A stretch of 64,000 bases of DNA from an uncultured Bacteroidota bacterium (GTDB lineage: Bacteria; CLD3; SB21), in the NCBI GenBank assembly GCA_964602985.1, contig CAZRTJ010000005.1, positions 73,198-137,197 of the forward strand. Reading direction: 5' to 3'. A program made the translations under genes and the position numbers. Positions 1 to 41,500 of this stretch are shown here, piece after piece (position 1 is the stretch's first letter; each line of letters begins with the position of its first letter). The notes below the pieces were generated by a model that was not told where the DNA came from, made no database searches, and worked only from the letters and a program-made list of their open reading frames with translations.

Positions 1-301
1 GAGCATACAAATTATACACGCGATAGTCGGGATTTTCCCCTGCTTCCGCTCCCAAATCGACCATCCCGCGGACATAGCCATGGACGGACAGCGACGGCAT
101 GACCACTTCACGTGCATCAAATACAATCGACTGAAATGCCCGCAGGCTCCTGGCGGATTCGTACGTCGAGTCTACGAATTGGTTTTCCCAGGCGTAGAAC
201 GACGTCGACGTGCGAAGCGACAGCGATTGCGCAGAGAGATCATGAACGACCAGCAAGATCAAGGAGCAGCAGATGATCCATGGAAAGGTTCGGTTCTGCA
301 T
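1..301 (-). CDS. N-terminal ~100 aa of a secreted hypothetical protein that continues beyond the window edge
   Basis: Reverse strand reads ATG (plus 299-301) then MQNRTFPWIICCSLILLVVHDLSAQS..., a signal-peptide-like start with no stop before position 1. It is not in the ORF track because it runs off the edge. Confidence 0.35.
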   Translation of the reverse strand, partial: MQNRTFPWIICCSLILLVVHDLSAQSLSLRTSTSFYAWENQFVDSTYESARSLRAFQSIVFDAREVVMPSLSVHGYVRGMVDLGAEAGENPDYRVYNLYA

Positions 302-321
302 AGTGTTACCTGTAGTAAGAA

Positions 322-344
322 GGGCGCCTCAGCATAAGGCGCCC
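322..344 (-). terminator. GC hairpin (GGGCGCC-loop-GGCGCCC) just downstream of the multihaem cytochrome gene
   Basis: 7-bp perfect inverted repeat with a 9-nt loop, 20 nt past the stop at 364. A modest U-rich tail follows on the minus-strand transcript. Confidence 0.45.
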
Positions 345-363
345 CATGACAAAAAGCAAGCCT

Positions 364-1725
364 CTACAAAGGACGGGCACCGGTCGGTGTCACTCCAAAC
401 GCCTCAATCGAATCGAAAATCAACTGAGCCGCATATTTGTAGTTGTGGTATCCGTACCCCTTGGATCGAACGACCAGGAAATAATTATACAGCGCACCAG
501 CCCGGTCTTTGGACAATTGAACCGAGATGCTGGAACTCGTCCACTTACCGGTCGTCGAATTGAAGGTAGCTGTTCGCTGCACACGGACCGCGTCGTGATA
601 GATATTTGCAAAACGGGTGGTCGCGTTCGAACTCAAGACCGGATCTGATGATGAGGCCAGCGAATCCAGCACATATTCCGTCGGTGCGTCCACCTGGCTC
701 AGCAGACCGGCGGTCGCAGGACCCGTGCTGTCGGGATCAAACGTGTTCAGAATATCCTGCAACTGCTTCAACAGCGTCTCGAGATTGGCCACTGAAGCAG
801 ACTGGATGGAACTGATATCTGTGGCGCCTGTATGGCATCCGGACACGGCACACGACGCGACTTTTGGAGAAAAATCATGGTTCCCGTAATTGCCGTTTTC
901 GGTGATTCCCGGCATATGACAGGTCACACACGCCTTGTTCAGAGCCGCCACGTGCGTCGAATTGGAATAGGTTTCGCCTGTGAACTCATATCCGCCTTCA
1001 CCGGAATACAAGTCCGCGCCCGGGCCTTCATGTGGACCCCAGTGACGCGATGTCAGTGACACGTTCGTCGTCTTGATAAAATCCGTGACATCCTTACGGG
1101 ATTTATGGCACATCATGCAGGTATTACCTGTCCCGTAATTGGGCATTTGAGTCCCCGTCGCCGAGGCCGTCGTCGCGCTCTTTTCAATATAAATGCCCTG
1201 CGTGGTAGACGTGCGAAGTGGATAATTGCCCGGCACATAGATCGAAGTCACGTGCTGGTTTGTCGAATCGGTCTTGGGTTCGTGACAGGTCAGACACTGG
1301 ATTTGTGCAAAGTTGGCATTGCCGTCGTACCCCGCTTCATAGATTTTGTTGTCCCCGGTGTTCTTATACAGGATTTGACCCAGAAGAACATTCGCCACTG
1401 TGCCCCCGGAATTTGAAACCGCTCCATCCAGCCGAGAAGCGAGGGCATCCTTGGCATGACACATTCCACAGGACCGGCCGGTGTTGTTCGTAAATGTCTC
1501 CTGCTCTTCGGTCAGCAGGATCTCCGCAAAATGAGACGAATTGCTGTACTGTTCCCATATGCCGCCGCTGTTATGACAGGGAGCCAAACATGCATTGGCA
1601 TTGACGCCGTCGATACCGTCTTCGCCATTCGTTCCGGCCGGACCGCGTGGCCCTTCGCAGGACAATAACGACACGGCAAAGAGGGTGACAAACAGATTAA
1701 TGAATTTCAGAAGAGATCTATTCAT
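364..1725 (-). CDS. Multihaem c-type cytochrome lipoprotein; 4 canonical CXXCH plus one CX3CH and one CX4CH; short collagen-like G-X-Y stretch after the lipobox
   Basis: Signal peptide with lipobox LLSC. GPRGPAGTNGEDGIDG is five G-X-Y triplets. Haem motifs in order: CLAPCH, CGMCH, CLTCH, CMMCH, CVTCH, CAVSGCH. Strong RBS AAAGGAGG before the ATG. Confidence 0.85.
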   Translation of the reverse strand: MNRSLLKFINLFVTLFAVSLLSCEGPRGPAGTNGEDGIDGVNANACLAPCHNSGGIWEQYSNSSHFAEILLTEEQETFTNNTGRSCGMCHAKDALASRLDGAVSNSGGTVANVLLGQILYKNTGDNKIYEAGYDGNANFAQIQCLTCHEPKTDSTNQHVTSIYVPGNYPLRTSTTQGIYIEKSATTASATGTQMPNYGTGNTCMMCHKSRKDVTDFIKTTNVSLTSRHWGPHEGPGADLYSGEGGYEFTGETYSNSTHVAALNKACVTCHMPGITENGNYGNHDFSPKVASCAVSGCHTGATDISSIQSASVANLETLLKQLQDILNTFDPDSTGPATAGLLSQVDAPTEYVLDSLASSSDPVLSSNATTRFANIYHDAVRVQRTATFNSTTGKWTSSSISVQLSKDRAGALYNYFLVVRSKGYGYHNYKYAAQLIFDSIEAFGVTPTGARPL

Positions 1726-1977
1726 GACATCCGCCTCCTTTCGGGTGGGTTGATTACGAATTATCTATGACAAGTGTAACCGATTCGATTTTACAAAGAA
1801 ATGACAATCGTCAAGGCCAAATATGATTGAATACCGGGAGGGGTTTGGGACGCTATTTGGTCATACGGACAGCCCTCCCAGACACACCATACCAGTTTCT
1901 GATAACCGGTCCCTGGAAGGACGGTTCGTAAAGAAACCGTCCTCCATCTGGATTCGACTAATTTACCCTATTTTACC

Positions 1978-2538
1978 CTATTTGGGTCGAGGGTGACTGA
2001 TGAGGGAATGCATTTCTGAGTAGGTAAATGGCTTGTAAGTCGGAGATTCCTCATTATGACACGTCTTACAACGCGCTTCATCGGGCTTGATCAGGCCGAC
2101 CGATTCGCCCGGAGTTTTGCCGTCTGTTATGGCTTGCATGACTTCCTTCGTCCAGTAATCACCTCCAGCGCCATGGCAGGACTCGCAGCTGACGCCGTCT
2201 TCCTTGCGGTATTTCTCCGTGTAAAACTTGGCGTCTAGCCCAGCACCGTCGATGTGACACTTCAGACAGGCCAACTCCGTTTGAGGATTGCCCAGTCCCT
2301 TGGCAGTTGCAATTTCCTTTGCCTTGTCGCTTCCAAGCGTCTCGAAGGCTTGCGCATGCTTGCTTTCTTTCCAGGATTTGTATTGTGCACCCTTCTTGGG
2401 AGACATGTGACACGGCTTGCATTTATCGGCTCCGACATAGGCGTGCTCGTTGGGATCGGTCCATTCAAGTTCAGCATAGTCTTTGACGTTCCACGAAACA
2501 AGAAATCCCACGATCATGGCGAGTATCAGCGTTTTCAT
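1978..2538 (-). CDS. Tetrahaem cytochrome c (cytochrome c554-like family), periplasmic
   Basis: I place the start at the internal Met (MKTLILAMIVGFLVSW, signal peptide) with a GGAG RBS. Four CXXCH: CKPCH, CLKCH, CESCH, CKTCH. The ORF-track start at 2712 adds 58 non-signal residues, so I reject it. Confidence 0.8.
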   Translation of the reverse strand: MKTLILAMIVGFLVSWNVKDYAELEWTDPNEHAYVGADKCKPCHMSPKKGAQYKSWKESKHAQAFETLGSDKAKEIATAKGLGNPQTELACLKCHIDGAGLDAKFYTEKYRKEDGVSCESCHGAGGDYWTKEVMQAITDGKTPGESVGLIKPDEARCKTCHNEESPTYKPFTYSEMHSLISHPRPK

Positions 2539-2574
2539 AATGTGACTCCTTTGTTGCAGTCCCAAGCACCGCGG

Positions 2575-2605
2575 CCTCCAACAAACGTACAGCTCCGTTG
2601 GAGGC
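2575..2605. promoter_or_regulatory. 9-bp inverted repeat (GCCTCCAAC...GTTGGAGGC) in the divergent promoter region between the tetrahaem cytochrome and the clpX-like gene
   Basis: Perfect 9-bp stem with a 13-nt spacer, 37-67 nt upstream of the cytochrome start. It could be an operator palindrome or a 5'-UTR stem-loop. Confidence 0.3.
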
Positions 2606-2835
2606 AAAACAATGATGATTTTCCGCCTTCCAATTCCACAATACGGCCAGCCCCTTCGACAAGAAATGACGATCGTCAGTGATAAGAACATCGTCAGAGG
2701 AAGCTTGCCCACGCGAGACCGGAAGCCGCTTCGCGTCCAGGGCCCCTCTCATCCCGTCACGCCACGGAAGTCCTGGGTTGTCTCAAAGGCGGTTGCTATT
2801 CTGCTCCCTCGCGTGTAAGTTATTATCGAAATTTC

Positions 2836-4392
2836 GTGGTTCATCGGACGTTATATTATCGCATTGAACATGAAAGGAATGCAGTGAATATCTCCTCGCA
2901 TACCAATACGGACCAGTTCAAGAAGGAATTTGAAGAATTCCTCAAGCAGAAATACGCCCAGCCGGATCCGGAACAGGATACCAGCGGAAGCAAGGCCGGT
3001 GTGAAGGGAACACAGGACCAGACTCCGGCCGATTTCGATCTGAAGCCGGAAGAACTCGAAGCATATTTGAATCAGTATGTCGAGTGCCAGCAGGAAGCGA
3101 TTGAAATCATCGCCACGAAAATCGCTACGCACTACAACCGGATGAAACTCGAAGACACGCTCACCGACGAGCAAAAACTGGTCGGCAACATCAAGAGCAA
3201 TGTCCTCCTGATCGGACCGACCGGCGTGGGCAAGACGTATATCGTCAAACTGATTGCCAAGAAGATCGGCGTGCCCTTCGTCAAAGGAGACGCGACAAAA
3301 TTCAGCGAGACCGGCTACGTGGGCGGCGATGTCGAGGACCTGATCCGTGAACTCGTCAAGGAAGCCGACGGCGATATCAAACGCGCGGAATACGGCATCG
3401 TCTATCTGGACGAAATTGACAAGATCGCCTCCTCGACAAACAATCGCGGGCTCGATGTGTCCCGATCCGGCGTCCAGCGAAACCTCCTCAAACTGATGGA
3501 GGAGTCGGAAGTCGATCTGCGTGTCCCTCACGACATGGCCTCGCAGATGGAAGCCGCGATGGAAGCACAACGTACTGGAAAAGTCCAGCGCAAGAAGGTC
3601 AACACGAAAAACATCCTGTTCGTCGTGAGCGGCGCGTTCTCGGGTCTGGAAGATATTATCTCCCGACGCCTCAATCAAAAGCGGATCGGCTTCGGTGCGC
3701 AGCATGTCTCCGCATCGAAAGTTTCCAAGGCCGAGGTATTCAAATCCGTCACGACCGAAGATCTCGTCGAATACGGATTCGAATCCGAGTTCGTCGGTCG
3801 ATTACCGGTCGTCGCCAACCTCAATGAATTGACCATCGACGCCCTGTTCAACATTCTGAAAAACCCGAACAGTTCCGTAACCCTCAGCAAGAAACGCGAC
3901 TTCGAGGCGTACGGAATTCAAATCGAATTTGACGACGACGCTCTGCAACTGCTGGCCGAGCGTGCCTACCAACAGAAAACGGGAGCGCGCGGCCTGGTCA
4001 ACATCCTGGAAAACGTTCTCATCAAGTTTGAAAAGAAATTGCCGTCTACATCGATTCGGACGTTCCGCGTCACGCGGGCCGTGGTCGAGAATCCGGAATC
4101 AGAACTGCGCGTCGTACTGGCCGAAGGAGCCATCCGAGCCTTCCAGCGTACGTTTCTGGAACAGCATGGGATCGTTCTGGAATTTCCGGATACCGCGCTG
4201 ACACGCCTGACGCAGCAGGCTGAGCGCGAACACCGCGCGGTCGATCAACTGCTTCACCAGCTGTTCAAAGACTATGAATATGGCCTCAAACTGGCGGGTG
4301 TTTCGACCTTCCGCGTGTCCGAAGAAGTTGTGGAAGATCCGAGGAAATACCTCGATGCACTCGTCAAGAACTCGTACGCAAACAAATCCTGA
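2836..4392 (+). CDS. ClpX-family AAA+ unfoldase paralogue lacking the N-terminal C4 zinc-binding domain
   Basis: Walker A LLIGPTGVGKT, GYVG pore-1 loop, Walker B IVYLDEIDK, sensor SRSGVQRNLLKLMEES, and an IGF loop (KRIGFGA) that suggests ClpP docking. No Cys-rich zinc finger. The start is GTG. Confidence 0.8.
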   Translation: MVHRTLYYRIEHERNAVNISSHTNTDQFKKEFEEFLKQKYAQPDPEQDTSGSKAGVKGTQDQTPADFDLKPEELEAYLNQYVECQQEAIEIIATKIATHYNRMKLEDTLTDEQKLVGNIKSNVLLIGPTGVGKTYIVKLIAKKIGVPFVKGDATKFSETGYVGGDVEDLIRELVKEADGDIKRAEYGIVYLDEIDKIASSTNNRGLDVSRSGVQRNLLKLMEESEVDLRVPHDMASQMEAAMEAQRTGKVQRKKVNTKNILFVVSGAFSGLEDIISRRLNQKRIGFGAQHVSASKVSKAEVFKSVTTEDLVEYGFESEFVGRLPVVANLNELTIDALFNILKNPNSSVTLSKKRDFEAYGIQIEFDDDALQLLAERAYQQKTGARGLVNILENVLIKFEKKLPSTSIRTFRVTRAVVENPESELRVVLAEGAIRAFQRTFLEQHGIVLEFPDTALTRLTQQAEREHRAVDQLLHQLFKDYEYGLKLAGVSTFRVSEEVVEDPRKYLDALVKNSYANKS

Positions 4393-5693: not shown

Positions 5694-6833
5694 ATGGCCG
5701 CTCTAACAACCGACGAACTCCGTCGGTATTCGCGTCACCTCATTCTCCCGCACTTTGGAAGAGAAGGACAGGAAAAGCTTAAGTCCGCTCGTGTCTTGGT
5801 GATCGGCGCCGGTGGACTGGGCAGTCCGCTGCTTCTGTATCTCGCCAGCGCGGGAGTCGGTCACATCGGCGTCGTCGATGAAGATGTTGTCGATGTGTCC
5901 AATCTGCAACGACAGGTTCTCTACGCCACTCACGATGTCGGCCGCGCCAAGGCCGAGGTTGCCGCGGAGCGCATCCGCGCCCTGAATCCACACGTATCGG
6001 TTGAGACCTATCCAGTGCGATTGAATTCCGACAATGCCATGTCCATTATCGGATCGTACGACGTGGTCGCCGACGGAACCGATAATTTTCCCACGCGATA
6101 CCTAACTAACGATGCCTGCGTGCTATTGGGAAAACCGCTGGCGTATGCTTCGATCTTCCGTTTTGACGGGCAAGCGTCCATTTTCAATGTACCACGTGCG
6201 GATGGAAGCCGCGGGCCGAACTACCGGGACTTATTTCCGTCCCCGCCGCCGCCCTCCTCCGTCCCCAGTTGCGCCGAGGGAGGCGTTTTGGGCGTGCTTC
6301 CCGGAATGATGGGATGCATCCAAGCCAATGAAGTAATCAAGGTGATCACGGGAATCGGCCGTCCGCTCAGCGGTCGACTCCTGCTGTTTGACGCACTCCG
6401 GTTCGAAACCCGTATGATCGAATTTGCTTGCGATCCCAAGAATCCGCTAAGCGGCGACCACCCGACGATCACTGAATTGATCGACTACGAAGGCTTCTGC
6501 GGACTCCGCGGCCAGACGACTCGAGGAATTGCTGTAGAAGAGCTTCAGATCATGATTCAGGAAGGGCGTCCTTTTCAACTCATCGACGTGAGAACAAAAG
6601 AGGAATACGATCTGGCCAATCTCGGCGGCATCCTCATTCCACTCGCCGCGCTACAGGAGCATTTGTCCAAGATCCGACGGGATTGTCCGGTGGTCGTTCA
6701 TTGCAAGACCGGAATACGAAGCGCGCAAGCCGTGTCGCTCCTGCAGCAACAGGGCTTTCACAACGTGAGCAATCTGGAAGGCGGGATTGTCGCATTTGCA
6801 AAATCCTTCCGCCCGGACTTGATCGTCTACTAA
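5694..6833 (+). CDS. moeB: MoeZ/MoeB-type adenylyltransferase (ThiF/E1-like) with a C-terminal rhodanese domain
   Basis: VLVIGAGGLGSP nucleotide loop, two CxxC pairs, and a rhodanese catalytic loop CKTGIRS near the C-terminus. Confidence 0.85.
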   Translation: MAALTTDELRRYSRHLILPHFGREGQEKLKSARVLVIGAGGLGSPLLLYLASAGVGHIGVVDEDVVDVSNLQRQVLYATHDVGRAKAEVAAERIRALNPHVSVETYPVRLNSDNAMSIIGSYDVVADGTDNFPTRYLTNDACVLLGKPLAYASIFRFDGQASIFNVPRADGSRGPNYRDLFPSPPPPSSVPSCAEGGVLGVLPGMMGCIQANEVIKVITGIGRPLSGRLLLFDALRFETRMIEFACDPKNPLSGDHPTITELIDYEGFCGLRGQTTRGIAVEELQIMIQEGRPFQLIDVRTKEEYDLANLGGILIPLAALQEHLSKIRRDCPVVVHCKTGIRSAQAVSLLQQQGFHNVSNLEGGIVAFAKSFRPDLIVY

Positions 6834-7466: not shown

Positions 7467-10400
7467 TTACTTCAGCAACAGCATCTTCCGCGAGACCACT
7501 CCCTGGGAGGACTCGAGGCGATACAGATAGACGCCGCTGGCCACCTGCCGGCCCAGATCGTTTCGGCCATTCCACACCACCGTGTGATAACCCGCCCGGC
7601 GGCTGCCGTTGAACAATTCGGCGACTTTCTGACCGAGAATATTGTATACGACCAGACGCACTCGACTCTCATCCGGCAGACCAAACTGAATAGTCGTTGT
7701 CGGGTTGAAAGGATTCGGGTAATTTTGCGACAGCTCGAGTTTCTTCGGCAAGAACGCATGGTCCGGATTGTAGAAAACGGCGAACGTTCCGCCTCGTCCT
7801 GTCTTGAACTGCACTGCACCCGACTGTCCTTCCCCACCCAAATATTCCCACGTGTCCCCGACGCGTTCGTACACTCCGACTTTGCGTTCGTCATAGGACG
7901 CATCCGTTGCGCGGTTCGCAGCAAGCGCCTTGGCATCGTACGGGACGGTCACCGTCAGGCGATCGCCCCTGTTCATATCGGTCGTCAGCAGGAGGTCCAG
8001 ATCACCCAAAGACAACCAATTGGCAGTCGCGGCCTTCTGCATGCCCAAAGTCAGTTCATCCGCACGATACGACCCGAGGAGGAAGCCGTCGGAGGACACG
8101 CCGCCTTTCGGTATGCCGACTCTTACTCCATCAAATTCGCCTGTCAACGCCTTGCTGGTCAGCGAAAGGACAGAGTACGTCTTCGAGGCTGTGGCCGGAT
8201 TGCCGACCGAATCCTGCGCGGAAACATCCAGCACCAGCGAACCCGTCGAGCGGATCGCGTAGGAAGTCGAGAATACCCGTGAATTGGAGCCCGTCATAGT
8301 CAGATTCGTGGTACCACCCAACGTCGCCGTACCGGTGATGCCGGCCAGACCTTCATTGGAGACCACGACTAATTGCACGCTGCTCTTGGCAATCGTACTG
8401 CGCAGGACTCCCAGCGTCAGAACGGGCGGCACGTTTTCCAGGCCCGTACCTCGCAACACCACACGAAGTGGCGTGCCGCCGGTCGAATTGGAAGTCACCT
8501 TCAGCGTATCGATCCGCGATCCGGTTTGCTGAGGTCGGAACCACACGGTCAACTGGAGCGAGTCATTCGACGTACCAATCGTATCAGGCAGAACGACTGC
8601 GTCTGATCGGTAGTCTGTGGTTGCATTCTGGATCTGACTCACGATCACGTTGCCAATCGTTGCCGTCAGTTTAACGACCGCCGAAATACTGTCGCCCACA
8701 CGCGTGGGAATATAATCGATCGCTGTGACTCCGGAACCCAGCAAACCGGCGGCTACGATGCCGTTCCCATGAAGAATGATCACCAGAGGATTCGTGGCCG
8801 ATGAATTGGAGAACTCTATGGTGTCCGCATACGAACCCAGAGCGGTCGGCGCAAAGCGGACGACAGCGCGCATGGTGTCGCCGGGCGCTACAGTGTCGGG
8901 CGTCGAGAAATTCGACGAGACTGCCGAGAATGGAACTTGCGGAGGTGCACCGGCGCTGGGAAAGATGACAATGCCGTTCTGCGGAATAATCATCAGGGTT
9001 TGGAAGGCGCTGTCGCCAAGCACTACGTTGCCGAAATCAAAATCGGTTCCGTTGGGCGTCGACAGGACCCCCAGCAGAGGTATGAACATGGCCAGTTCGG
9101 AAGAATGGCCGGCGCTGTCCTGCATCGCGGTAATGATGTCGCCCGACCCAAACGAGACCGTGGCCGTCCAATCCCCGGACCCATTGGCCGTTGTGGTTGC
9201 CAGGATCGTGCGCCCCTGGTTACCGTGCAGCCGGTCCGCATAAACCTGAACGAATGCATTCGGGGCCGACTTTCCGGTCACAGTCGTCGCAGTCACACTG
9301 GTGATCCGCGGCGGCGCGACACCTTTCTGAACTCCATCGCCGGGCTTGAACAGAATACCGCCCCATTGATTTTCAAGAATCAGGTTCTGCCAAAACACAT
9401 TGCTGTCCGTCAGAGCGCCCGCGACGCCAATTCCCGCCTGGCCATTAAAGGCAATGATGTTGCCCTGGACCGTATCCGCGGTCGATCCGCTGTGGAGATC
9501 GACGCCCATCCCCAGATTGGGGATCGGCAACACGCCCGTCACGTCCGTCCCGATGTAGTTACCCGCGATCCTCGTGCGGTAGGTGCTGTCCATCGAGATT
9601 CCACTTCGGATATTACCCGAAATAACATTGCGCATGCCGGCAGTGCCGTCACCAATCCAGTGATCTTGAGAGGTTGAACCGAAATAATCGCCCAAGATGA
9701 GAATGCCCGATCCATTGCCGATCGGCGCTGTCCCTGCCGCGTTGGTGCCAATGTTGTTCCTGAACATGCGAACATATTCAGCGCTCTGAATCAGTATGCC
9801 AGCGCCCGCTGTGTCGCCGCCGGCATCCACGTAAAAGTGTCCCGAAATGACATTCTCATATACAAGGCTGGAATCGGCGCCTCCGAAGATCGTCACACCG
9901 TCCATGCCGTTCTTGCGATTCTGATTGCCCGTTATGTCAACACCTACATAATTACCGGCGATAATGGAGTGGGGCGCATCAAAACCTTCGATGACGACTC
10001 CGCTGAGTCCATTACTGCTGATCAGGTTACGACCCGTACCAGAAGCGTCACCAATCTCATTGTATCGCGCCGGTCCCCAGATGCCGAATTCTTCCGTGAC
10101 ATAGTACCCGGAAATTCGGACACCGTGACCGCCATTTCCAAGAGAGGTTGAGCCACTCTGGTCGAGACCGACGATATTGGCCTTCACCTTGTTGAAATTC
10201 GAGGAGTCTCCGGGACTGTCTCCACCGCGAATCCAGATGCCATCCAATGCATTGGCAGAAATGACATTTCCAGTGTTGGCAGCATTACTACCAATCCAGT
10301 TCCTGCTTCCACCATGCATGATGATGCCGGCACCGGCATTTCCGAGGGGCGTGACGCCATCGGCTCCGAGACCGACCAGATTGTTGAACACCTTGCAGTC

Positions 10401-13400
10401 ATTTGAGAATTCTATTTCAATCCCCGGCGAATCGTTTTCGTTATTGCCGGACACGACATTTCTGCCTTGTCCGGTGGCGTCTCCGATGTCCGTCTGATTG
10501 GACAAATTGACATGGATACCGCCCCCACCGTTGGACAGAGCCGCCAATCCGTTGGCGGTGGTACCGATGAAATTGCCCAAGATGTCGTTGTAGTCGGCTG
10601 CGTAAATCTCCACGCCTTCCTCAAAGTTGCCGGAGATCAGATTGCCGGTGATTTTATTATTCTCCGCCCCGTTCTTGATTTCAACGCCCTTCTTATTCTC
10701 GGTGGGGAACTGACCTGTGATGTCCGGGCCGATGTAGTTGCCGGAAATATCGTTGTAGTCCGTGCCGATACCCTCCACCAGAACTCCGAACCTCTCATGG
10801 CCTGCAAATACATTTCGCCCGAATGACGTGTTGTCGCCGATCATGTTGTATTGGGCGCCGTCTGCGATTTTGATTCCACCTGTCGCGGACCGGAGTTCGA
10901 CGCCATCCGTTCCAAAGTAACAGGATGTAATTCGGTTATTTTGAGCGTTACTGCCGCTGATCACGACGGATGTGTCGAAGCCCAGAAACCGGAAGCCTGA
11001 TAGATGATTGTCAGACATGGTGATTCGGAAAGCGTTGGTCAGTATGGATCCCAGCAAAGTCACATCCGGAACACCGTCGTTGTTGAGGTCGCCATTGATG
11101 CGGGTGTTGTCGCCATTGACGGCGATCGGCCCGTAGGCGTCGTTCACCTCCAATTTTTCTCCGGCTAACGAGGCGTGGATTTTGATGGAATCGGGGCCCG
11201 CGTGGAAGACCGCCGCATACCAGGTCGCAAATCGAAGCGTTCCAGGTTCAGTTGCGCTGTCGTGCGTTTTTGTCACGACCAGGGAGTCAGAAATCACAAT
11301 ATTCATCGCATTGGAGAATGGACCGGTGCGTCCGTTCAAGTCCTGTAAGGCCGTCACAAACAGCCCTTGGGGCACGGTCACGCTCAATGACCAGCTCCCT
11401 CCACCATCTGACGTGGTTTCGCCGAGATAGAACTTGCCTTCATCGCCAATATCCGCATACACATGGATCTTCGCATTTGCATTGGCTGTCCCCAGCACTG
11501 TATTGGGCAGAAGGCTGGTTACTGCCGGGGCAATCGGATCCCCCTGCTGTCCCGCGTAGACCTTGATGCCGGATGCAGGATGATCGAAGATGGCATTGCG
11601 GTACATGATCACGCTGTCCACGTGGCCCGAGCCGCTGGACTGAATCACAATACCCGTATCATTGTCCGCGATCCGGTTGAACGCGATGGAATCGCCGATA
11701 ATGTTGTCATTGAAGGCGCTCAGATGAATTCCATGTCCGGTATTGCCGACACCGACCGCGAATCCGTCTTTGTTCGTGCCGATGTAATTGCCCAGAATTT
11801 TGTTGCCGATAACACGAAAGCTCTGAGTCGAAATACGAATCCCCGCGCCATTATTGCCGCTGATCAGATTCCGGCCGTCAGGGAATCCGGTACCGATCCA
11901 GTTACTGTCCGAGTCCTCGATCTCGACGCCCTCGTCATTCCCTATGCTGGAAGTGCCGCCGATATTTAGACCAATCGTGTTTTGATACAGACGGTGGTGG
12001 GCGCCTCCGAGGATAGCCACACCGGTCGCATTGCCGCTGATGACGTTGCCGCTCCCCGGAGTCGTTCCGCCGACAAAGATATCAAACGAATACTCCAGCC
12101 GAATTCCCGCGCCGTCATTTCCCGCATCGTTATTTCCGGACTGGTCCGTTCCGATCCGGTTCGACTCGATCCAGCTGTCATACGAATCCTGGAAGTAGAC
12201 GCCCTCCGAACTGTTGAAGGAAATCGTGTTCCCTTCGGCCACGGTCGGTCCGCCGATTCGATTGAATTTAGAATTATTGACAAAAACACCGTGACGCGAA
12301 TTTCCAATGGTTCCGCCTGCCGGGTCGACGCCGATGAGGTTCCCGACAATCACGTTCGAGTCGGAGCCGTCTATCGTTATCCCATCTACATAATTCCGGC
12401 CGATGTAATTTCTTTCCTGGACATCGGATGAACCGATCTGATTGGCGTTGGAACTGTCGAGCAGAATTCCGCTCCCTGCGTTCGAATGCGCTAGCATGTA
12501 AATATCGACGCCGATGTAGTTGCCGCGAATGCCGGTGCCGCGTGCGCCGTTCTCAAGAAGAATTCCTTCGGCTCCGTTTGCGCCGATCACATTGCCGAGA
12601 TTGGAAGGACCTCCGATGAGCGTTCCGATAGCCTGATCGACACGAATCCCAACACTAAAATTACCCATGTCGCTATTCCCGCCCGGATCCAGGCCGATCT
12701 TATTGCCTCTCACGCTGTTGGAATCCGTCCCCACGCCGGAGATGACTATACCTTCTTGAAGATTGTTGGAAATCGTATTGCTCTGAGTGGAATAGTCGTC
12801 GCCAATCACATTGTGATGAGCGCCTCCATCCACAAGAATTCCGATATAGTTCGGCTGAGGCGTGCCGGTAAAGTCCAGGCCAAACCAGCAACGTCGGATG
12901 ATGTTGTTATGAGCGCCCGTACCTGAGATCCTCAGACCTGCATTGCCGGCTGCGGAATTCCCGCCGATTCGAAGTTCTTCGAGGACATTGGAGTGAGACA
13001 AAATCGTCAGCCCGTGTTCTCCGGCCGACAGAGAGGACGCATTGATGCTTGTCGAGCTATTAGAGATAATCGTGGTGAAGGGGTCCGTCAGCGCCGGTAG
13101 CTCGCTGACCAGATCGATTTCACCGACGTTATCGAACTCAATACGATCCGCGCCGGGCCGAGTGTTGGCGGTGTCCAGAGCCGCGCGGAAACTCCCGGCT
13201 CCGGCGTCATTAAGATTCATCACCCGGATCGGTTCATTCAGGTTGCCTGATGAGACGGATGCAACCGTGATGTATGCGCCATTCGGCACAGAGACATCAT
13301 TCTTGTCAACCTTGGTCGGGTCCCAGTAGTTGTCATTGGTCAGGACGCTCGCATTGCTGAAGTCGCCGTCCGTGTCGATCAGAATCCGCATCGAGGAAGG

Positions 13401-14426
13401 ATCCGAGACCACCAGTGGGGTGACGTCAAACGACAGATTCACCTGATGAGGCGGTCCCTCCGTCTCCACTCGCCACACCCGCGAGAGTCGACGGGCGACC
13501 CCAAACGGCAATCCCGTAGTCACCGGGGCATACGGTCCATCGTCATGCCCGAAGAGAACATGTTCGCCGGGATTTAAGGACTGCGCATTCCACTCGGTGA
13601 GGGCCAGGAGATCGGACTTCGCCGATTCCGTCTCGCCGTACGGCCATGCGTCCTCTCTGACCCCTGCCCATATGGCGCGAAGATCAGACAGAGTGAGTGA
13701 TGGCATCGGAATCGTGGATGACGGACGAAGAAAATTGCCTTTCAGCACGCCCGTCCTGGCCGCAGGGGAGCCGTCCGTCAAAGTACCGCCACCGACTTCA
13801 TCCATCTTGTAATACAGAAGTAGATTCGCATAATTCGGATGTCCTGCATTCAGCGGACGATGCACCCATTCACGGATGTCGTCCGGACCAACCACGCTAC
13901 CGAAGACTCTCAACTCATCGATCGTACCGATGAGTGAATCGGAGGGGGCCGCCAAGCGCCGTCCCACAAGTGCGGAATCCGTGCTGAGGGGGAATGTCAC
14001 GATCGCGATGTTGCCTCCGTCGTCAAGACCGTTCACGTAGATTTCCGACTGCCCGGATGACGCATCATACGTAGCGGCAACATGGTACCATGTGTTGCTG
14101 GCCATGACTATGTTCGTCCCTGCAGCAGTATGGGTTCCTGATCCACCGTCCACCTGCAGGTAAACATAGCCGCCTTGCGCCAGCGTCTGAATTCCAAAGG
14201 AGATTCCATTCAGGTCCCCGCTCCGAGGCTGACTAAAGATGATATGGTTGTTTGGCGTCGTCGCATCCGGAAGCAGGACCCAGGATTCGATGGTGAAGTT
14301 GGAACCGTTCAGCGGCAACGCAGAGACCCTTGCGTGTCCTCCATCCAAGTCGAGAGCCCGGACGGCGGTTTGGGACCACAGATTGGAAACGGACAGGAAA
14401 CTCGAAAGCAGTAACAGTATCCTCAT
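7467..14426 (-). CDS. Giant (2319 aa) secreted protein with N-terminal LamG/concanavalin-like domain, a long right-handed parallel beta-helix (PbH1/NosD-like) repeat array, Ig-like region and C-terminal T9SS sorting domain
   Basis: Signal peptide; LamG_3-like block (FTIESWVLLPD...ASNTWYHVAATYD); dozens of G-N-x-I-G beta-helix rungs. The last ~80 aa (LSQNYPNPFNPTTTIQF...GVYLYRLES...KMLLLK) match the Por/T9SS C-terminal domain. Confidence 0.9.
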   Translation of the reverse strand: MRILLLLSSFLSVSNLWSQTAVRALDLDGGHARVSALPLNGSNFTIESWVLLPDATTPNNHIIFSQPRSGDLNGISFGIQTLAQGGYVYLQVDGGSGTHTAAGTNIVMASNTWYHVAATYDASSGQSEIYVNGLDDGGNIAIVTFPLSTDSALVGRRLAAPSDSLIGTIDELRVFGSVVGPDDIREWVHRPLNAGHPNYANLLLYYKMDEVGGGTLTDGSPAARTGVLKGNFLRPSSTIPMPSLTLSDLRAIWAGVREDAWPYGETESAKSDLLALTEWNAQSLNPGEHVLFGHDDGPYAPVTTGLPFGVARRLSRVWRVETEGPPHQVNLSFDVTPLVVSDPSSMRILIDTDGDFSNASVLTNDNYWDPTKVDKNDVSVPNGAYITVASVSSGNLNEPIRVMNLNDAGAGSFRAALDTANTRPGADRIEFDNVGEIDLVSELPALTDPFTTIISNSSTSINASSLSAGEHGLTILSHSNVLEELRIGGNSAAGNAGLRISGTGAHNNIIRRCWFGLDFTGTPQPNYIGILVDGGAHHNVIGDDYSTQSNTISNNLQEGIVISGVGTDSNSVRGNKIGLDPGGNSDMGNFSVGIRVDQAIGTLIGGPSNLGNVIGANGAEGILLENGARGTGIRGNYIGVDIYMLAHSNAGSGILLDSSNANQIGSSDVQERNYIGRNYVDGITIDGSDSNVIVGNLIGVDPAGGTIGNSRHGVFVNNSKFNRIGGPTVAEGNTISFNSSEGVYFQDSYDSWIESNRIGTDQSGNNDAGNDGAGIRLEYSFDIFVGGTTPGSGNVISGNATGVAILGGAHHRLYQNTIGLNIGGTSSIGNDEGVEIEDSDSNWIGTGFPDGRNLISGNNGAGIRISTQSFRVIGNKILGNYIGTNKDGFAVGVGNTGHGIHLSAFNDNIIGDSIAFNRIADNDTGIVIQSSGSGHVDSVIMYRNAIFDHPASGIKVYAGQQGDPIAPAVTSLLPNTVLGTANANAKIHVYADIGDEGKFYLGETTSDGGGSWSLSVTVPQGLFVTALQDLNGRTGPFSNAMNIVISDSLVVTKTHDSATEPGTLRFATWYAAVFHAGPDSIKIHASLAGEKLEVNDAYGPIAVNGDNTRINGDLNNDGVPDVTLLGSILTNAFRITMSDNHLSGFRFLGFDTSVVISGSNAQNNRITSCYFGTDGVELRSATGGIKIADGAQYNMIGDNTSFGRNVFAGHERFGVLVEGIGTDYNDISGNYIGPDITGQFPTENKKGVEIKNGAENNKITGNLISGNFEEGVEIYAADYNDILGNFIGTTANGLAALSNGGGGIHVNLSNQTDIGDATGQGRNVVSGNNENDSPGIEIEFSNDCKVFNNLVGLGADGVTPLGNAGAGIIMHGGSRNWIGSNAANTGNVISANALDGIWIRGGDSPGDSSNFNKVKANIVGLDQSGSTSLGNGGHGVRISGYYVTEEFGIWGPARYNEIGDASGTGRNLISSNGLSGVVIEGFDAPHSIIAGNYVGVDITGNQNRKNGMDGVTIFGGADSSLVYENVISGHFYVDAGGDTAGAGILIQSAEYVRMFRNNIGTNAAGTAPIGNGSGILILGDYFGSTSQDHWIGDGTAGMRNVISGNIRSGISMDSTYRTRIAGNYIGTDVTGVLPIPNLGMGVDLHSGSTADTVQGNIIAFNGQAGIGVAGALTDSNVFWQNLILENQWGGILFKPGDGVQKGVAPPRITSVTATTVTGKSAPNAFVQVYADRLHGNQGRTILATTTANGSGDWTATVSFGSGDIITAMQDSAGHSSELAMFIPLLGVLSTPNGTDFDFGNVVLGDSAFQTLMIIPQNGIVIFPSAGAPPQVPFSAVSSNFSTPDTVAPGDTMRAVVRFAPTALGSYADTIEFSNSSATNPLVIILHGNGIVAAGLLGSGVTAIDYIPTRVGDSISAVVKLTATIGNVIVSQIQNATTDYRSDAVVLPDTIGTSNDSLQLTVWFRPQQTGSRIDTLKVTSNSTGGTPLRVVLRGTGLENVPPVLTLGVLRSTIAKSSVQLVVVSNEGLAGITGTATLGGTTNLTMTGSNSRVFSTSYAIRSTGSLVLDVSAQDSVGNPATASKTYSVLSLTSKALTGEFDGVRVGIPKGGVSSDGFLLGSYRADELTLGMQKAATANWLSLGDLDLLLTTDMNRGDRLTVTVPYDAKALAANRATDASYDERKVGVYERVGDTWEYLGGEGQSGAVQFKTGRGGTFAVFYNPDHAFLPKKLELSQNYPNPFNPTTTIQFGLPDESRVRLVVYNILGQKVAELFNGSRRAGYHTVVWNGRNDLGRQVASGVYLYRLESSQGVVSRKMLLLK
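9750..13230 (-). repeat. Highly repetitive coding DNA for the parallel beta-helix rungs of the giant protein
   Basis: The recurring peptide motifs (GNxIGxD, NxIxGN) produce many imperfect ~66-75-nt DNA repeats. Boundaries are approximate. Confidence 0.55.
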
Positions 14427-33614: not shown

Positions 33615-35327
33615 TCATCCGGCCACTTTTTTTACACGATATACGGCGATCGGCTGGTTGTATGTTTTCTCCAAAAAGTCCTCAGAGATCTTTTCGAATC
33701 GCAGGGACAGCCCGTAAAATTCAAGGCAGTATCGCTGCAGCAGGTCATTGTAATCGGGAGAGGACGCCAAGAGAAGTCTGGATTCGCTCCGTGCGGCGGC
33801 ACGCATGACATCCCCCAACGACGCACGACCCGAGAGGCGTTCTAGTCGGTCGCGAACGTAAGAATACCGTGTAGTCCAGCCCGAGCAAACGGTCACAGAG
33901 GTCTCGGGAGAATCCCAAAGAGACTTTCCGAAGACAGGGAACCCTGTCCACAGGTGCATCGCGTGGCCAATGAAAAGCAGATCAGCGCCTGGGTATTCGT
34001 TCTGCAAGAGCTGTAGCGTTTGCATGTTCACCTGGGCGCGTGATTTCAGGAAGGTCCGCTGCTGCGTCTGTCGCCAAGACGCGACCAGCAGAGTCGATCC
34101 CAGGATTGCCATGGCGAGTGCTCGCCCCAGGCGAGGAAAACGGGTGTGAGCCCGCGGACGGATCATGAAGAAGTGTCCCAATGTGTAAAGGACGATGGCG
34201 GGCTCCGCGACCCGATTTCGCATGCGAAGAAACACTTCGACTGTGCAAAGCAATATCCAGAATCCAACGTGATACGATGCATAAACCCCCGAGTGTTTCC
34301 AACGCCCTGTCTCGCCGCGAATACGGATCCAAAACATCCCCAGGAAAAGCACATTCAACCCAAGCACCAACATGTTGTTCTTGACCAACAGGCGAATCTG
34401 GCGAAAGAGAGAGTGCCCAATCGACTGCCACGCAATCGTCGGAACGCTCTCATCGATCCTCTGCTGCCATCCAGATAAGATTTCAGCCGTCAGAACATCG
34501 CGATCCCACATCACACCCTTAACCACCGACTCCTCGATCAGTTTGCTCCTCAGATCCTTTCCGATGGGATCTCTCGGTTGTACCGCATAATCGTTGATCG
34601 CGACAAGTGTCCGGTGATCCGTGGTGGAAATGGCGCGATCCAGCGGGAGCCATTGCAGGCTGAGGGACAGGACGTATAGGACGACTCCTGCCGGAATCAC
34701 CCGCCACGATGTGCGCACCCAATTACCCAAAATGACACTTCTGCAGACGGTCGCAAGAGCGATGATGAGGTATGCAAGCAGGACCGATTCCGGTCGGACC
34801 AGGAGAACGACGAAGACCAACCCCCATTGGGCGTATACACCAGGACCCCGGGCCTTCCACAAGAAGAGAATGGCGAATGCACTACCTGCGGTCAGGATGC
34901 AGACTCGTGTAAAGTTTAACAACACGACCGAGTTACCTGAAGCCAAGGTAGCCAGCACCAGCAGACCGAGCGCTTGCTGCCAGAAGGGAAATCGACTCTT
35001 GGTGGACATCAGAAAGACGTACGCGACATTTGCCAATCCGGAGGCTAGCATGGCATAGCAAAAAAGACCATACCAGGGAATTCCGGGAAGCATCTGATAC
35101 AGCCTGGCCATCACCTCGCCGACACCGTAAAACCAAAAACCGGTGCTTCCGACGGGTCGATCTAGAATGGCCCCACGCATCATGAGCTCAAACAGCGGAT
35201 CGTCCTGTGTTTCGAAATACAATCCGACCAGTGCACGGATCAGAACGATAACGACTACGGCCAGCGCAAACATCTGCACCCATGGCAGGCGAACGCCCAG
35301 AAACACTCCTTGCTCCGAACGCTTCAC
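33615..35327 (-). CDS. Large polytopic membrane protein of unknown function; last gene of the glycosylation-like operon
   Basis: More than 10 predicted TM segments. Its start overlaps the stop of the upstream gene by 4 nt. No recognisable family. Confidence 0.55.
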   Translation of the reverse strand: MKRSEQGVFLGVRLPWVQMFALAVVVIVLIRALVGLYFETQDDPLFELMMRGAILDRPVGSTGFWFYGVGEVMARLYQMLPGIPWYGLFCYAMLASGLANVAYVFLMSTKSRFPFWQQALGLLVLATLASGNSVVLLNFTRVCILTAGSAFAILFLWKARGPGVYAQWGLVFVVLLVRPESVLLAYLIIALATVCRSVILGNWVRTSWRVIPAGVVLYVLSLSLQWLPLDRAISTTDHRTLVAINDYAVQPRDPIGKDLRSKLIEESVVKGVMWDRDVLTAEILSGWQQRIDESVPTIAWQSIGHSLFRQIRLLVKNNMLVLGLNVLFLGMFWIRIRGETGRWKHSGVYASYHVGFWILLCTVEVFLRMRNRVAEPAIVLYTLGHFFMIRPRAHTRFPRLGRALAMAILGSTLLVASWRQTQQRTFLKSRAQVNMQTLQLLQNEYPGADLLFIGHAMHLWTGFPVFGKSLWDSPETSVTVCSGWTTRYSYVRDRLERLSGRASLGDVMRAAARSESRLLLASSPDYNDLLQRYCLEFYGLSLRFEKISEDFLEKTYNQPIAVYRVKKVAG

Positions 35328-37348
35328 TTCCGCCTCAGGATTTGAATGCCGCTGTCCAAAAAGGCGGGCTCCAGCATGGTCTGCCAGTCAAAATGCAGTG
35401 AATCGGTCGATCTCAGGTAGATATACTCGATGTCGTAATTCACGAGGATGGCCTGGGCGCTGTCCAAAGAGCGCGTGTCGTAAAACGTGTGAACATCGCG
35501 GCGCACTCGCGACAGGCGCTCCATGTAGGGTTTGTCCTTTTCAGCGAAAGCAAAAACATAGGCCACGCCTTCGGTGACAACGGGTTTTCTCGAAAAGACT
35601 TGCACAGCCATATACGATTCGTCACCCGGCTCAGAGAGATCGTAGTATTTCGTGAGAATGCGCCCCTGCCCCGGAGCGGTGCGAAGAAATTCAAAGCTCT
35701 TCATCGTCGCGCGGTCCAGGATCAGGCGGGTGCCCGATGCACCGTTGAGTCCGACGACTGCAAACGACCAGACGCCGGATAACATCAAGAGCAGGGAGAC
35801 ACCGGCCCAACAACGAGGCACCCATCCCTTCCGAGAAAAAAACGAAGAGAGTCGCTCGACGGAGTAGATATTCAAGATGAAGATGATTAAAAGAAAAAAC
35901 CACATCGAATCGTGTTTACGCAATTCGTTGGCCGTGAGAACGAATGCTCCCATACCGCCAAGAATGCTGAAAAGAAGAAATGTGTGGCCATCCGGTTGAT
36001 GAGCGATATTGCGCAATCTCATCCGGGAAATGAAATAGGACAGACCCAGCCAGCGGAAGTGAAGCAGGCCGAGGTAGTAAACAAGGAGGGTCAGAACAAA
36101 CCATCCGACGCCCTTCATCGACTGGGGAAATCCATGTTGAACCACTTCGGCACGGAGACTTTCACTGATCAAATGAGAGCGAACGCCAAAGTTTAGTGGA
36201 AAGAACCATTCGGAAAAGCGAACACCGTTGCGAGCCTCTGATGCAGAGTCCCAGAAGATAGGTATGCTGAGAATCACGACCCATCCGGCAAGCAACAGCA
36301 TGTGACGGCGCCGGAATCGAACTACTTGCAGAACCGCGACCACGCATAACGCCGACACACCGACAAGAAAGGCCGTAATCTTTGCCTTGATCATGAAAAC
36401 CCAGCCGATCAAGCACAGGAAGAACCAGAGTTTGGCGGGCTGTCGATCATAGAGAATCGTGGTTCCGCACAGCCCGCAGAATAGTCCCGTAGAAAAAAGA
36501 TAAGAGGGATTGTGAAAGAGCTGAAACTGCGTGATGATCGGGGTCCACACCGACAGAAAAGTCGGATACCCGGATCCGAACCACGCTTCGCCTTCCACCA
36601 CCACTCCACGAACCCACAAAATCAGCGCCGAAGGATCGAAACAGAACAATGTCACAAAAACGGCACCGAGCGCAATGCGGTGGCGGTTCCAAAGTAGTCG
36701 GGTCAAACCGTACACATGAATCGCCAGCATCATCATGCAAAGCGGAACAAAAAAATAAACGTACAGAACAAAATGGTTGGTCACACCAGCGGACGATGAA
36801 AACAAGTGAATAAAGAGATTGGCAAAATAGTGGTAATGACTCCGATCCGCAGGAACGGCATGAATCGTCTGAGGAAGCACGTCATAGTCCAAGTCCGCGA
36901 CGATTGTCAGATGGTGCATCACCTCGGTTGCAAACAGGTCGTAGGCCTCCAGCCGGTCTCCTGTTAAGCCGTTCCGGAATAGATAAGGCGTGATTCCCAC
37001 AAAGAACGCAAGAATCAACACGCCAAAGACTGCGGACCGGAAATGTACCAGCTTCCAGAAGAAGCCTCCAAAAATCGCAAACGTTCTGTTCGTGCGACAT
37101 TGAATGAGAACAATCGTCAGAACGACACCCGGCACACCCACCACGCACAACAGCGCCGCCACCGGCGACGGCAAGAAAAACCGGAGGATCCAATACAGTG
37201 TGGTGGAACCCACGACGGCAATCGTGAGTGACACGGACAAGATCGTGCCGGCCGGAACATCCAGATTTCTGGTCAGGTACACACATGCAGCCAGGCAACA
37301 AGCCGTCAGGAACAGAAAGAAGACATAAGGTAGGATGGACTCAGCCAT
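35324..37348 (-). CDS. Polytopic membrane protein with ~200-aa C-terminal soluble domain; paralogue of 38620-40560; putative GT-C-type glycosyltransferase
   Basis: Shares with its paralogue EVMHHL, Y(H/Y)FFANxFI, YVYFFxP, QFQxxNNPSYL and KAKITxFL. Start chosen at MAESILPYVFF, which couples to the small upstream ORF. Confidence 0.6.
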   Translation of the reverse strand: MAESILPYVFFLFLTACCLAACVYLTRNLDVPAGTILSVSLTIAVVGSTTLYWILRFFLPSPVAALLCVVGVPGVVLTIVLIQCRTNRTFAIFGGFFWKLVHFRSAVFGVLILAFFVGITPYLFRNGLTGDRLEAYDLFATEVMHHLTIVADLDYDVLPQTIHAVPADRSHYHYFANLFIHLFSSSAGVTNHFVLYVYFFVPLCMMMLAIHVYGLTRLLWNRHRIALGAVFVTLFCFDPSALILWVRGVVVEGEAWFGSGYPTFLSVWTPIITQFQLFHNPSYLFSTGLFCGLCGTTILYDRQPAKLWFFLCLIGWVFMIKAKITAFLVGVSALCVVAVLQVVRFRRRHMLLLAGWVVILSIPIFWDSASEARNGVRFSEWFFPLNFGVRSHLISESLRAEVVQHGFPQSMKGVGWFVLTLLVYYLGLLHFRWLGLSYFISRMRLRNIAHQPDGHTFLLFSILGGMGAFVLTANELRKHDSMWFFLLIIFILNIYSVERLSSFFSRKGWVPRCWAGVSLLLMLSGVWSFAVVGLNGASGTRLILDRATMKSFEFLRTAPGQGRILTKYYDLSEPGDESYMAVQVFSRKPVVTEGVAYVFAFAEKDKPYMERLSRVRRDVHTFYDTRSLDSAQAILVNYDIEYIYLRSTDSLHFDWQTMLEPAFLDSGIQILRRK

Positions 37349-37637
37349 GAAGGTTGGATCTTGTGATATGTCCGGCTTGTCGCAATCCCGTAAGACCAAT
37401 CGCGGAGACGATGCCCGCACCGGCAATGCCGGCGAGTAGGCCTGTCAGGGATCCCGCCAGAGACCCGGCCAACGCACCAGCCACCAGCCAGCACAAAGCG
37501 CCGAGCGTTAACATGTGAAGTGTCCGGCGTGAGGGCGAAACAACGAGCAGGACCACTCCCACCATGCAGTACAAAACGACACCCAGGACAACACAAGTCA
37601 CCCATACCCCATCCGCCGTCAGATACTTTCCAATCAC
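37341..37637 (-). CDS. Small two-TM glycine-zipper membrane protein
   Basis: GTG start overlapping the upstream stop. AGALAGSLAGSLTGLLAGIAGAGIVSAIGLTG is a GxxxG zipper. Weak; could be a frame artefact. Confidence 0.4.
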   Translation of the reverse strand: MIGKYLTADGVWVTCVVLGVVLYCMVGVVLLVVSPSRRTLHMLTLGALCWLVAGALAGSLAGSLTGLLAGIAGAGIVSAIGLTGLRQAGHITRSNLHG

Positions 37638-41495: not shown

Positions 41496-41500
41496 GGCTC

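Follow-up and report, generated by a model that had tools for sequence, protein, structure and literature searches.

The subject of this analysis is a pair of multihaem cytochrome genes in a 64,000-nucleotide stretch of contig CAZRTJ010000005.1 from an uncultured Bacteroidota bacterium (the whole stretch is referred to here as the window). The larger gene encodes a hexahaem lipoprotein of 453 residues with a short collagen-like segment just past its lipid anchor, and the gene upstream of it encodes a c554-type tetrahaem cytochrome. The hexahaem protein is a member of the NrfA / octahaem nitrite reductase (ONR) / OcwA structural superfamily without being an NrfA itself, and about an even chance is given to its being the outer-membrane-anchored lipoprotein cytochrome of a porin-cytochrome conduit, with an NrfA/OcwA-type body and the collagen-like segment. 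A known haem module and a known type of conduit would thus be combined with a collagen-like stalk in an architecture that is apparently undescribed; full-text searches, with most subscription journals outside their coverage, found no paper on a collagen-like multihaem cytochrome. The features of the hexahaem gene are as follows.

364..1725, minus strand: hexahaem lipoprotein gene, 453 residues, with a collagen-like segment and an NrfA/OcwA-like multihaem body
1657..1725, minus strand: lipoprotein signal peptide, read from the sequence, with lipobox L-L-S-C and Cys23 as the presumed lipidated residue
1600..1653, minus strand: short collagen-like segment of six G-X-Y triplets, residues 25-42 (GPR GPA GTN GED GID GVN)
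1573..1590, minus strand: haem site 1, CLAPCH (CX3CH), residues 46-51
1456..1470, minus strand: haem site 2, CGMCH (residue 86)
1282..1296, minus strand: haem site 3, CLTCH (residue 144)
1105..1119, minus strand: haem site 4, CMMCH (residue 203), followed by a near-invariant K-S-R-x-D
916..930, minus strand: haem site 5, CVTCH-M (residue 266), by alignment the counterpart of the NrfA/ONR CxxCHMP site
832..852, minus strand: haem site 6, CAVSGCH (CX4CH), residues 292-298, aligning with the last NrfA/ONR haem
367..831, minus strand: haem-free C-terminal domain, residues 299-453 (155 residues)

The open reading frame (ORF) starts at an ATG with a good ribosome-binding site (RBS), GGAGG, 8 nucleotides 5' of it. 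The N-terminus reads MNRSLLKFINLFVTLFAVSLLS up to the Cys of the lipobox L-L-S-C (Cys23), and the pattern [LVI][ASTVI][GAS]C is satisfied by an n-region MNRSLLKF, an h-region INLFVTLFAVSLLS and then L-L-S-C23. Cys23 is invariant in 67 of 67 aligned family sequences (alignment A1), and with the lipobox and all six haem sites conserved in the family, the lipoprotein multihaem cytochrome of the original prediction, which had been made from the window's sequence, is borne out. That prediction had counted five triplets past the lipid Cys and three to four canonical CXXCH motifs; the triplet run is present and holds six, the motifs CLAPCH and CAVSGCH are confirmed, and the canonical sites number exactly four. 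The haem-free C-terminus, foreseen at about 150 residues, is composed of long helices with a beta-hairpin insert and ends in a G-x-H-N motif common to NrfA and ONR.

A search of 5.8 billion proteins returned 518 homologues, and conservation was counted over the 120 listed. The motif C-[LM]-x-P-C-H is found at site 1 in 118 of these, the remaining two being N-terminally truncated; the four CXXCH sites are kept by every one; and the last haem site stands at the same place in all, with a spacing of four residues in 64, two in 51 and three in five. The cysteines of the CX3CH and CX4CH sites, on whose conservation the original prediction had staked itself, are thus retained. A wider superfamily was delimited by a profile search of 1.84 billion cluster representatives, in which a threshold of E<=1e-30 gave 97 clusters; relaxing it to E<=1e-10 raised the number to 2,341, a figure swollen by collagen repeats. 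The best 150 representatives were filtered to 79 proteins of 300-520 residues with a C-terminal G-x-H-[NQ] motif, many of them just 330-400 residues long; six haem motifs are present in 71, a lipobox in 68 and at least four triplets in 68, and the first haem motif is a plain CXXCH in 67. The only informative name from the cluster look-up was "collagen-like protein [Candidatus Neomarinimicrobiota]", and Pfam and NCBIfam hold no dedicated model for the hexahaem family. The unusual spacing had been taken to mark special haem ligation, and this part of the original prediction does not hold up: because the last-site spacing varies among close homologues and site 1 is mostly CXXCH in the wider superfamily, the CX3CH and CX4CH motifs look like normal haem sites in which extra loop residues are tolerated. 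Met271 was also considered as a special ligand and was rejected, as NrfA and ONR share the CHMP context.

The triplets are a conserved collagen-like feature, since they are kept across homologues and usually in longer runs. In the 71 listed homologues whose N-terminus and lipobox are intact, the total ranges from 5 to 27 with a median of 14, the run mostly begins one residue past the lipid Cys, and Pro occupies 37% of the X positions. Six in-register glycines are expected by chance at about 3e-4 per protein of such length and Gly content; the original prediction had named absence of triplets from all relatives as the sign of such a chance run, which is ruled out by their conservation across the family. 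A precomputed match to Pfam PF01391 is found in about half of the 120 listed homologues, the family profile matched collagen chains in the PDB at E=1.9e-23 as well as BclA, and family member P0183 matches the NCBIfam Scl and Lcl models. One relative locus (L086, 2534-5091) holds tandem collagen-hexahaem paralogues of 377 and 392 residues, both Pfam collagen-positive, beside a Crp/FNR-type regulator and a DUF5777 protein. The likeness to bacterial collagen-like surface proteins (Scl1/Scl2 of Streptococcus, BclA of Bacillus, Lcl of Legionella) lies in a Pro-rich G-X-Y segment between an envelope anchor and a globular head; the hexahaem family differs from them in its multihaem head, its N-terminal lipid anchor and its short runs of 5-27, where Scl2 carries about 79 triplets.

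What such a segment would do depends on its length. At the collagen rise of 0.286 nm per residue, 14 triplets would extend about 12 nm, 23 about 20 nm and six about 5 nm at most. In relatives with 10-27 triplets the run would make a triple-helical stalk of three chains, keeping three haem heads 10-20 nm off the membrane, and the six triplets of the window protein may form a short spacer or a trimer nucleus only, of about 5 nm if helical. The flexible linker of the original prediction is not supported; for the relatives with long runs a rigid trimerising stalk is more likely, given Pro-rich G-X-Y repeats, and six triplets are too few to judge the window protein. In the fullest form of this proposal, which is held tentatively, the run is a true triple helix and the protein a trimer, whose 18 haems would sit in a head borne by a rigid stalk, lipid-anchored and 5-20 nm long, making a stand-off electron-transfer device that is distinct from Mtr-type surface cytochromes and cytochrome nanowires and is widespread in Myxococcota and the FCB group. 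It is just as possible, and just as doubtful, that the triplets of the window protein are a short unstructured Gly/Pro-rich tether, the remnant of a longer ancestral stalk, on a protein that is a monomer or dimer. The low number of triplets points that way, as do the short runs (5-10 triplets) of the closest clade, the lack of any match of the hexahaem protein itself to PF01391 (collagen) at E<=1, the coil with a predicted local distance difference test (pLDDT) score of 50-58 at residues 21-50 of the AlphaFold monomer model, and the dimeric state of NrfA and OcwA (PMC6703420). A triple helix cannot show in a monomer prediction, however, and a decayed tether is hard to square with the presence of at least four triplets in 68 of the 79 wider-superfamily representatives and with the near identity of GP-x-GPAG-x-x-G-x-DG-[IV]-D in the distant 357-residue relative P0249. 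The short G-X-Y form is itself conserved and therefore argues for selection on register.

Placement of the haem-bearing body came from comparison of folds and of profiles. The fold comparison figures were 11.7 and 11.1 for NrfA, 11.1 for ONR, 11.0 for OcwA (a Thermincola cell-surface reductase), 10.0 for the S-layer cytochrome OmhA and 5.8 for HAO, and Foldseek ranked OcwA first, as a weak match. A single-sequence phmmer search of the hexahaem protein against PDB sequences gave no match and the family profile was required; with its collagen part removed, the profile matched ONR with E=5.8e-6 and NrfA with E=8e-5. The alignment with NrfA and ONR takes in both final haem sites (CxxCHMP ... CxxCH) as well as the C-terminal helix, in which A-G-A-L-Y-N-Y ... 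G-V-H-N-P of the family aligns to A-H-A-L-W-E-Y ... G-F-H-N-P of ONR. Because fold comparison and profile alignment match, the haem-free C-terminal domain is assigned to the helical module of the NrfA/OcwA group; NrfA, ONR and OcwA constitute a homologous structural group (Soares et al. 2022, PMC9250108). The protein is not an NrfA, since the family thresholds are missed (Pfam PF02335, 17.5 against 24.1 bits; NCBIfam NF008339, 8.7 against 595 bits) and there is no CXXCK haem, all six sites ending in CH. A nanowire subunit of the OmcS type, which also has six haems, was considered and rejected: the fold matches NrfA and OcwA, and no OmcS-like protein was among the fold matches listed.

The relation to known members of the superfamily is one of shared module and differing setting. 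Like OcwA of Thermincola potens (PDB 6I5B) and OmhA of Carboxydothermus ferrireducens (6QVM), the hexahaem protein is probably at or beyond the envelope in extracellular electron transfer and may have one haem without a distal His. Those proteins carry 9 and 11 haems in place of six and belong to Gram-positive walls or S-layers, without lipid anchor, collagen-like segment or porin partner; the His-His motifs above their two five-coordinate haems have no conserved counterpart here, no invariant His-His pair being found in the 67-sequence alignment. With NrfA and ONR it shares the profile match (E of about 5e-6) at the two final haem sites and the C-terminal G-x-H-N-P helix, and differs from them by an extra N-terminal CX3CH haem in addition to the missing CXXCK haem, by the lipid anchor and the triplets, and by genomic partners that are a barrel and a dodecahaem cytochrome, not NrfH or NrfBCD.

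Candidate haem ligands were sought in the same 67-sequence alignment. For six haems, the only invariant non-motif His residues are H65, H232, H258, H283 and H427; three of them, H258, H283 and H427, line up with His residues that are conserved in NrfA/ONR. Because there are five conserved candidate distal His residues against six haems, one haem may have an open or unusual sixth position; haem site 2, which on motif spacing may be the counterpart of the NrfA active-site haem, could be guessed at as the open site. Also conserved are K208, S209, R210 and D212 past site 4, and D93 and R98 past site 2. The manner of their conservation recalls active-site residues and, together with a haem that may lack its distal His, suggests a different function, namely that of a periplasm-facing lipoprotein enzyme of the NrfA superfamily whose five-coordinate haem would reduce or oxidise nitrite, hydroxylamine, nitric oxide or a sulfur oxyanion with the tetrahaem cytochrome as donor. 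OcwA, an NrfA-like terminal iron-oxide reductase, itself also reduces nitrite (PMC6703420); a c554-like tetrahaem recurs near family genes, and c554 is the partner of HAO in nitrifiers (PMC9250108); and one distant relative has in its vicinity a rhodanese gene and a UshA-like gene of the Metallophos/5'-nucleotidase family. Such an enzyme is nevertheless considered unlikely, because the NrfA scores fall far under threshold and no CXXCK haem is present, because the cluster is without NrfH, NrfBCD or other enzyme-specific partners, and because association with a barrel and dodecahaem leaves a small-molecule reductase with no obvious role.

The cytochrome cluster extends past the start of the window on the same contig (locus L001), where the gene order is c554-type tetrahaem, hexahaem lipoprotein, a barrel protein of 454 residues, a dodecahaem of 358 residues, a monohaem lipoprotein of 120 residues and two secreted paralogues of about 205 residues. 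The two genes that flank the hexahaem gene lie within the window wholly or in part.

1..301, minus strand: outer-membrane beta-barrel gene (454 residues), of which the first 100 codons are in the window and the rest beyond it
1978..2538, minus strand: tetrahaem cytochrome c gene, 186 residues, with four CXXCH and a hydrophobic N-terminus (signal peptide or anchor)

The barrel protein starts with a signal peptide and ends in an aromatic residue (...NYWIFNRW); modelling of the 98%-identical P0121 gave a beta-barrel with about 22-24 strands. The protein itself has no match in Pfam or NCBIfam, and a faint match to the LptD-barrel Pfam family was seen in 3 of 14 barrel homologues. The dodecahaem gene begins 4 base pairs past the barrel gene and encodes a signal peptide without a lipobox and 12 CXXCH motifs, as expected of a periplasmic cytochrome, and its product is comparable in size to MtrA and OmaB; its score against the NCBIfam DmsE/MtrA-type model TIGR03508 is 17.8 bits, below the cut-off of 192, and a search for its homologues returned 29 proteins, mostly unnamed, with no link by name to the Pcc proteins of Anaeromyxobacter. 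At the end of the cluster (L001, 14320-15548) the paralogous secreted-protein genes, of 205 and 204 residues, are adjacent, and for these no Pfam or NCBIfam match and no tblastn homologue in the other loci were found.

Neighbourhoods were then compared among relatives, with one genome per species, in 172 loci of which 80 were kept. Nearly all of these are Polyangiaceae or other Myxococcota metagenome-assembled genomes, two of them labelled as the cultured species Labilithrix luteola (L022) and Nannocystis exedens (L076), and the closest relatives of the hexahaem protein (50-68% identity) form a small Bacteroidota-labelled clade, in which the L001 gene order is shared by L003 and L007. A barrel and a dodecahaem homologue are both present in 34 of the 41 loci with at least 8 kb on each side, and are adjacent to each other in all 34. 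With a barrel and a 12-haem cytochrome directly past the window start, the context fits the outward, trans-outer-membrane electron transfer of the original prediction. Such loci have three more ORFs (median) that carry four or more CXXCH, the largest ORFs reaching 24-34 motifs, and NapC/NirT-type quinol dehydrogenases and Rieske/cytochrome b genes occur in relatives' neighbourhoods. In the 50%-identical relative L007 (15193-20164), the cluster goes on with two very large cytochromes, of 724 residues with 13 CXXCH and 941 residues with 19 CXXCH. Both have hydrophobic segments and could be electron donors in the inner membrane; the window's contig lacks them. At L087 a multihaem gene and a 519-residue gene of unknown function precede the hexahaem gene, and at L088 c554-like and NapC/NirT genes precede it.

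The barrels of the two groups of loci belong to one family, because an iterated jackhmmer search joins them: when begun from a Polyangiaceae neighbour protein of about 460 residues, it recovers the barrels of the window's clade (L007 at 3e-33, L001 at 4e-14). Neither pairwise BLASTP nor phmmer matched the barrel to Polyangiaceae-locus neighbours of 479 and 497 residues, and the 497-residue protein, from L083, was rejected as a family member because it lies outside the jackhmmer-connected family. By gene arrangement the cluster resembles the Pcc clusters (Geobacter OmaB-OmbB-OmcB, and those of Anaeromyxobacter and Kuenenia) in having a barrel by a 12-haem cytochrome of about 350 residues, plus a lipoprotein cytochrome; the described type of Anaeromyxobacter and Kuenenia consists of a porin and a periplasmic cytochrome of 12-14 haems and 338-344 residues (PMC4245776). 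It differs in that its barrel is matched by no Pfam or NCBIfam model and that its lipoprotein partner is a six-haem NrfA-fold protein with a collagen-like segment, where the OmcB type has 12 haems. Genomic work has already described porin-cytochrome clusters in Ignavibacteria and Anaeromyxobacter (PMC4245776, PMC7399161), and NrfA-like surface reductases are known from Gram-positives (PMC6703420).

The upstream gene, with its start taken at an ATG with an AGGAG RBS, is the c554-type tetrahaem that the original prediction had named. It matches Pfam PF13435 (Cytochrome_C554) at E=4.3e-18 and 66.5 bits (cut-off 20.8) over profile positions 1-84 of 84, and it resembles c554 (CycA) of Nitrosomonas europaea in this match and in its four haems. 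It is no orthologue of CycA, however, as it scores 44.1 bits against the equivalog model NF043010, below the cut-off of 400, and its neighbourhood is without HAO. Non-motif H61 and H182 and one Met (M134) are the only such invariant residues in four close homologues (alignment A5), and one haem may be five-coordinate, as in Nitrosomonas c554. Homologues with 44-62% identity are found near hexahaem-family genes at L007, L085 and L088, so that the association of tetrahaem and hexahaem recurs in FCB-type genomes; because of this recurrence in three further loci it is plausible that the two are linked in function, and the tetrahaem may feed the hexahaem protein. The partnership originally proposed thus stands in part: the tetrahaem was not detected in the Polyangiaceae loci scanned, and the conserved partners are the barrel and dodecahaem. 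The tetrahaem also matches the C-terminal domain of an NCBIfam "UshA-like (seleno)protein" model at E=5e-17. At L085 (5945-13234) the neighbours of a hexahaem relative with 29% identity include a c554-like tetrahaem and a rhodanese lipoprotein, besides a Crp-type regulator and a UshA-like gene of the Metallophos/5'-nucleotidase family. Taken with this model match, such a context could be a hint of sulfur or selenium chemistry among some members of the superfamily.

In the proposed conduit, electrons from the quinol pool would pass to periplasmic carriers such as the c554-type tetrahaem, from these to a dodecahaem rod seated in the barrel, and from the dodecahaem to the hexahaem lipoprotein at the outer face, which would reduce an extracellular acceptor (a mineral, a humic substance or a partner cell), or accept electrons from a donor if flow is inward. 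Several observations weigh against this arrangement. The barrel and dodecahaem are missing from 7 of the 41 well-flanked loci and also from L085, the locus of a distant relative; the fold matches the periplasmic enzymes NrfA and ONR as well as surface reductases; and all family members come from metagenomes. In the absence of hydroxyproline, a run of six triplets is not likely to be stable as a triple helix by itself, and a long rigid stalk, where there is one, would keep the head off the porin mouth, which is awkward for direct hand-over. Moreover, four inspected Polyangiaceae loci (L011, L013, L020 and L080) have, past the barrel and dodecahaem, a separate haem-rich ORF with 12 CXXCH and 3 CX3-4CH motifs, whose lipobox is visible only at L080 and which could be the true external partner.

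With the external position already taken in those loci, the hexahaem protein might instead face inward, its stalk serving as a rigid periplasmic spacer and its head taking electrons from NapC/NirT- or c554-type proteins to the porin-bound dodecahaem. Gram-negative lipoproteins face the periplasm by default, NapC/NirT genes adjoin the hexahaem gene at L084, L011 and L088, and the 10-27 triplets of relatives, which at the same rise would span about 9-23 nm, approximate the periplasmic width when the head is added. Six triplets are far too short for the periplasm, yet the window protein keeps the same partners; a collagen-stalk spacer of this kind is also not known to have a precedent, and the inward orientation is judged the least probable of the alternatives. 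Outer-face anchoring in a porin-cytochrome conduit is preferred on balance.

If this preferred placement is correct, the hexahaem lipoprotein would be a new component of extracellular electron transfer, in which an NrfA-fold module, held by a lipid anchor and a collagen-like stalk in a Gram-negative envelope, works with a porin and a dodecahaem, and the NrfA-fold haem module, so far known at Gram-positive surfaces, would extend to the Gram-negative envelope. Conduits would then be carried by Polyangiaceae, other Myxococcota (abundant predators of soil and sediment) and FCB-group bacteria, and this wider host range would bear on the cycling of iron, manganese and humic substances. A stand-off device, if real, would occur in lineages of Myxococcota and the FCB group not usually counted as electroactive, and a trimeric stalk of fixed length would raise the question of why a cell sets a cytochrome at a defined distance from its membrane. 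Some family members are at present annotated merely as "collagen-like protein".

Between the hexahaem stop (364-366) and the barrel start (301) lies one further element.

322-345, minus strand: GC-rich hairpin, GGGGCGCC...GGCGCCC, followed by a weak T-tract

The 65-nucleotide intergenic RNA between the two genes folds at -24.9 kcal/mol (z = -2.8). The hairpin was not picked out by the terminator scan, and promoter and terminator scans of window positions 1-2900 gave sites at numbers not above those in shuffled sequence. From its position and predicted folding, the hairpin could be a partial terminator or an mRNA stabiliser that sets the ratio of hexahaem to barrel expression.

Several other features of the contig were recorded. 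At a distance of 3 kb from the cluster there is a ThiF/MoeB-rhodanese fusion gene (window 5694-6833), and an FCSD-like flavoprotein gene (Pyr_redox_2, with a weak FCSD_central match) lies 3.3 kb past the cluster on the other side of the window start (L001, 18859-20088). On the minus strand at window positions 7467-14426, a secreted protein of 2319 residues has a Laminin_G_3 domain, beta-helix/NosD-like repeats and a C-terminal type IX sorting domain (Por_Secre_tail); this protein places the organism in the FCB group. Finally, the plus strand shows a strongly positive AT skew of 0.17-0.28 at window positions 34001-42000, over minus-strand genes of 570, 700, 329 and 692 residues.

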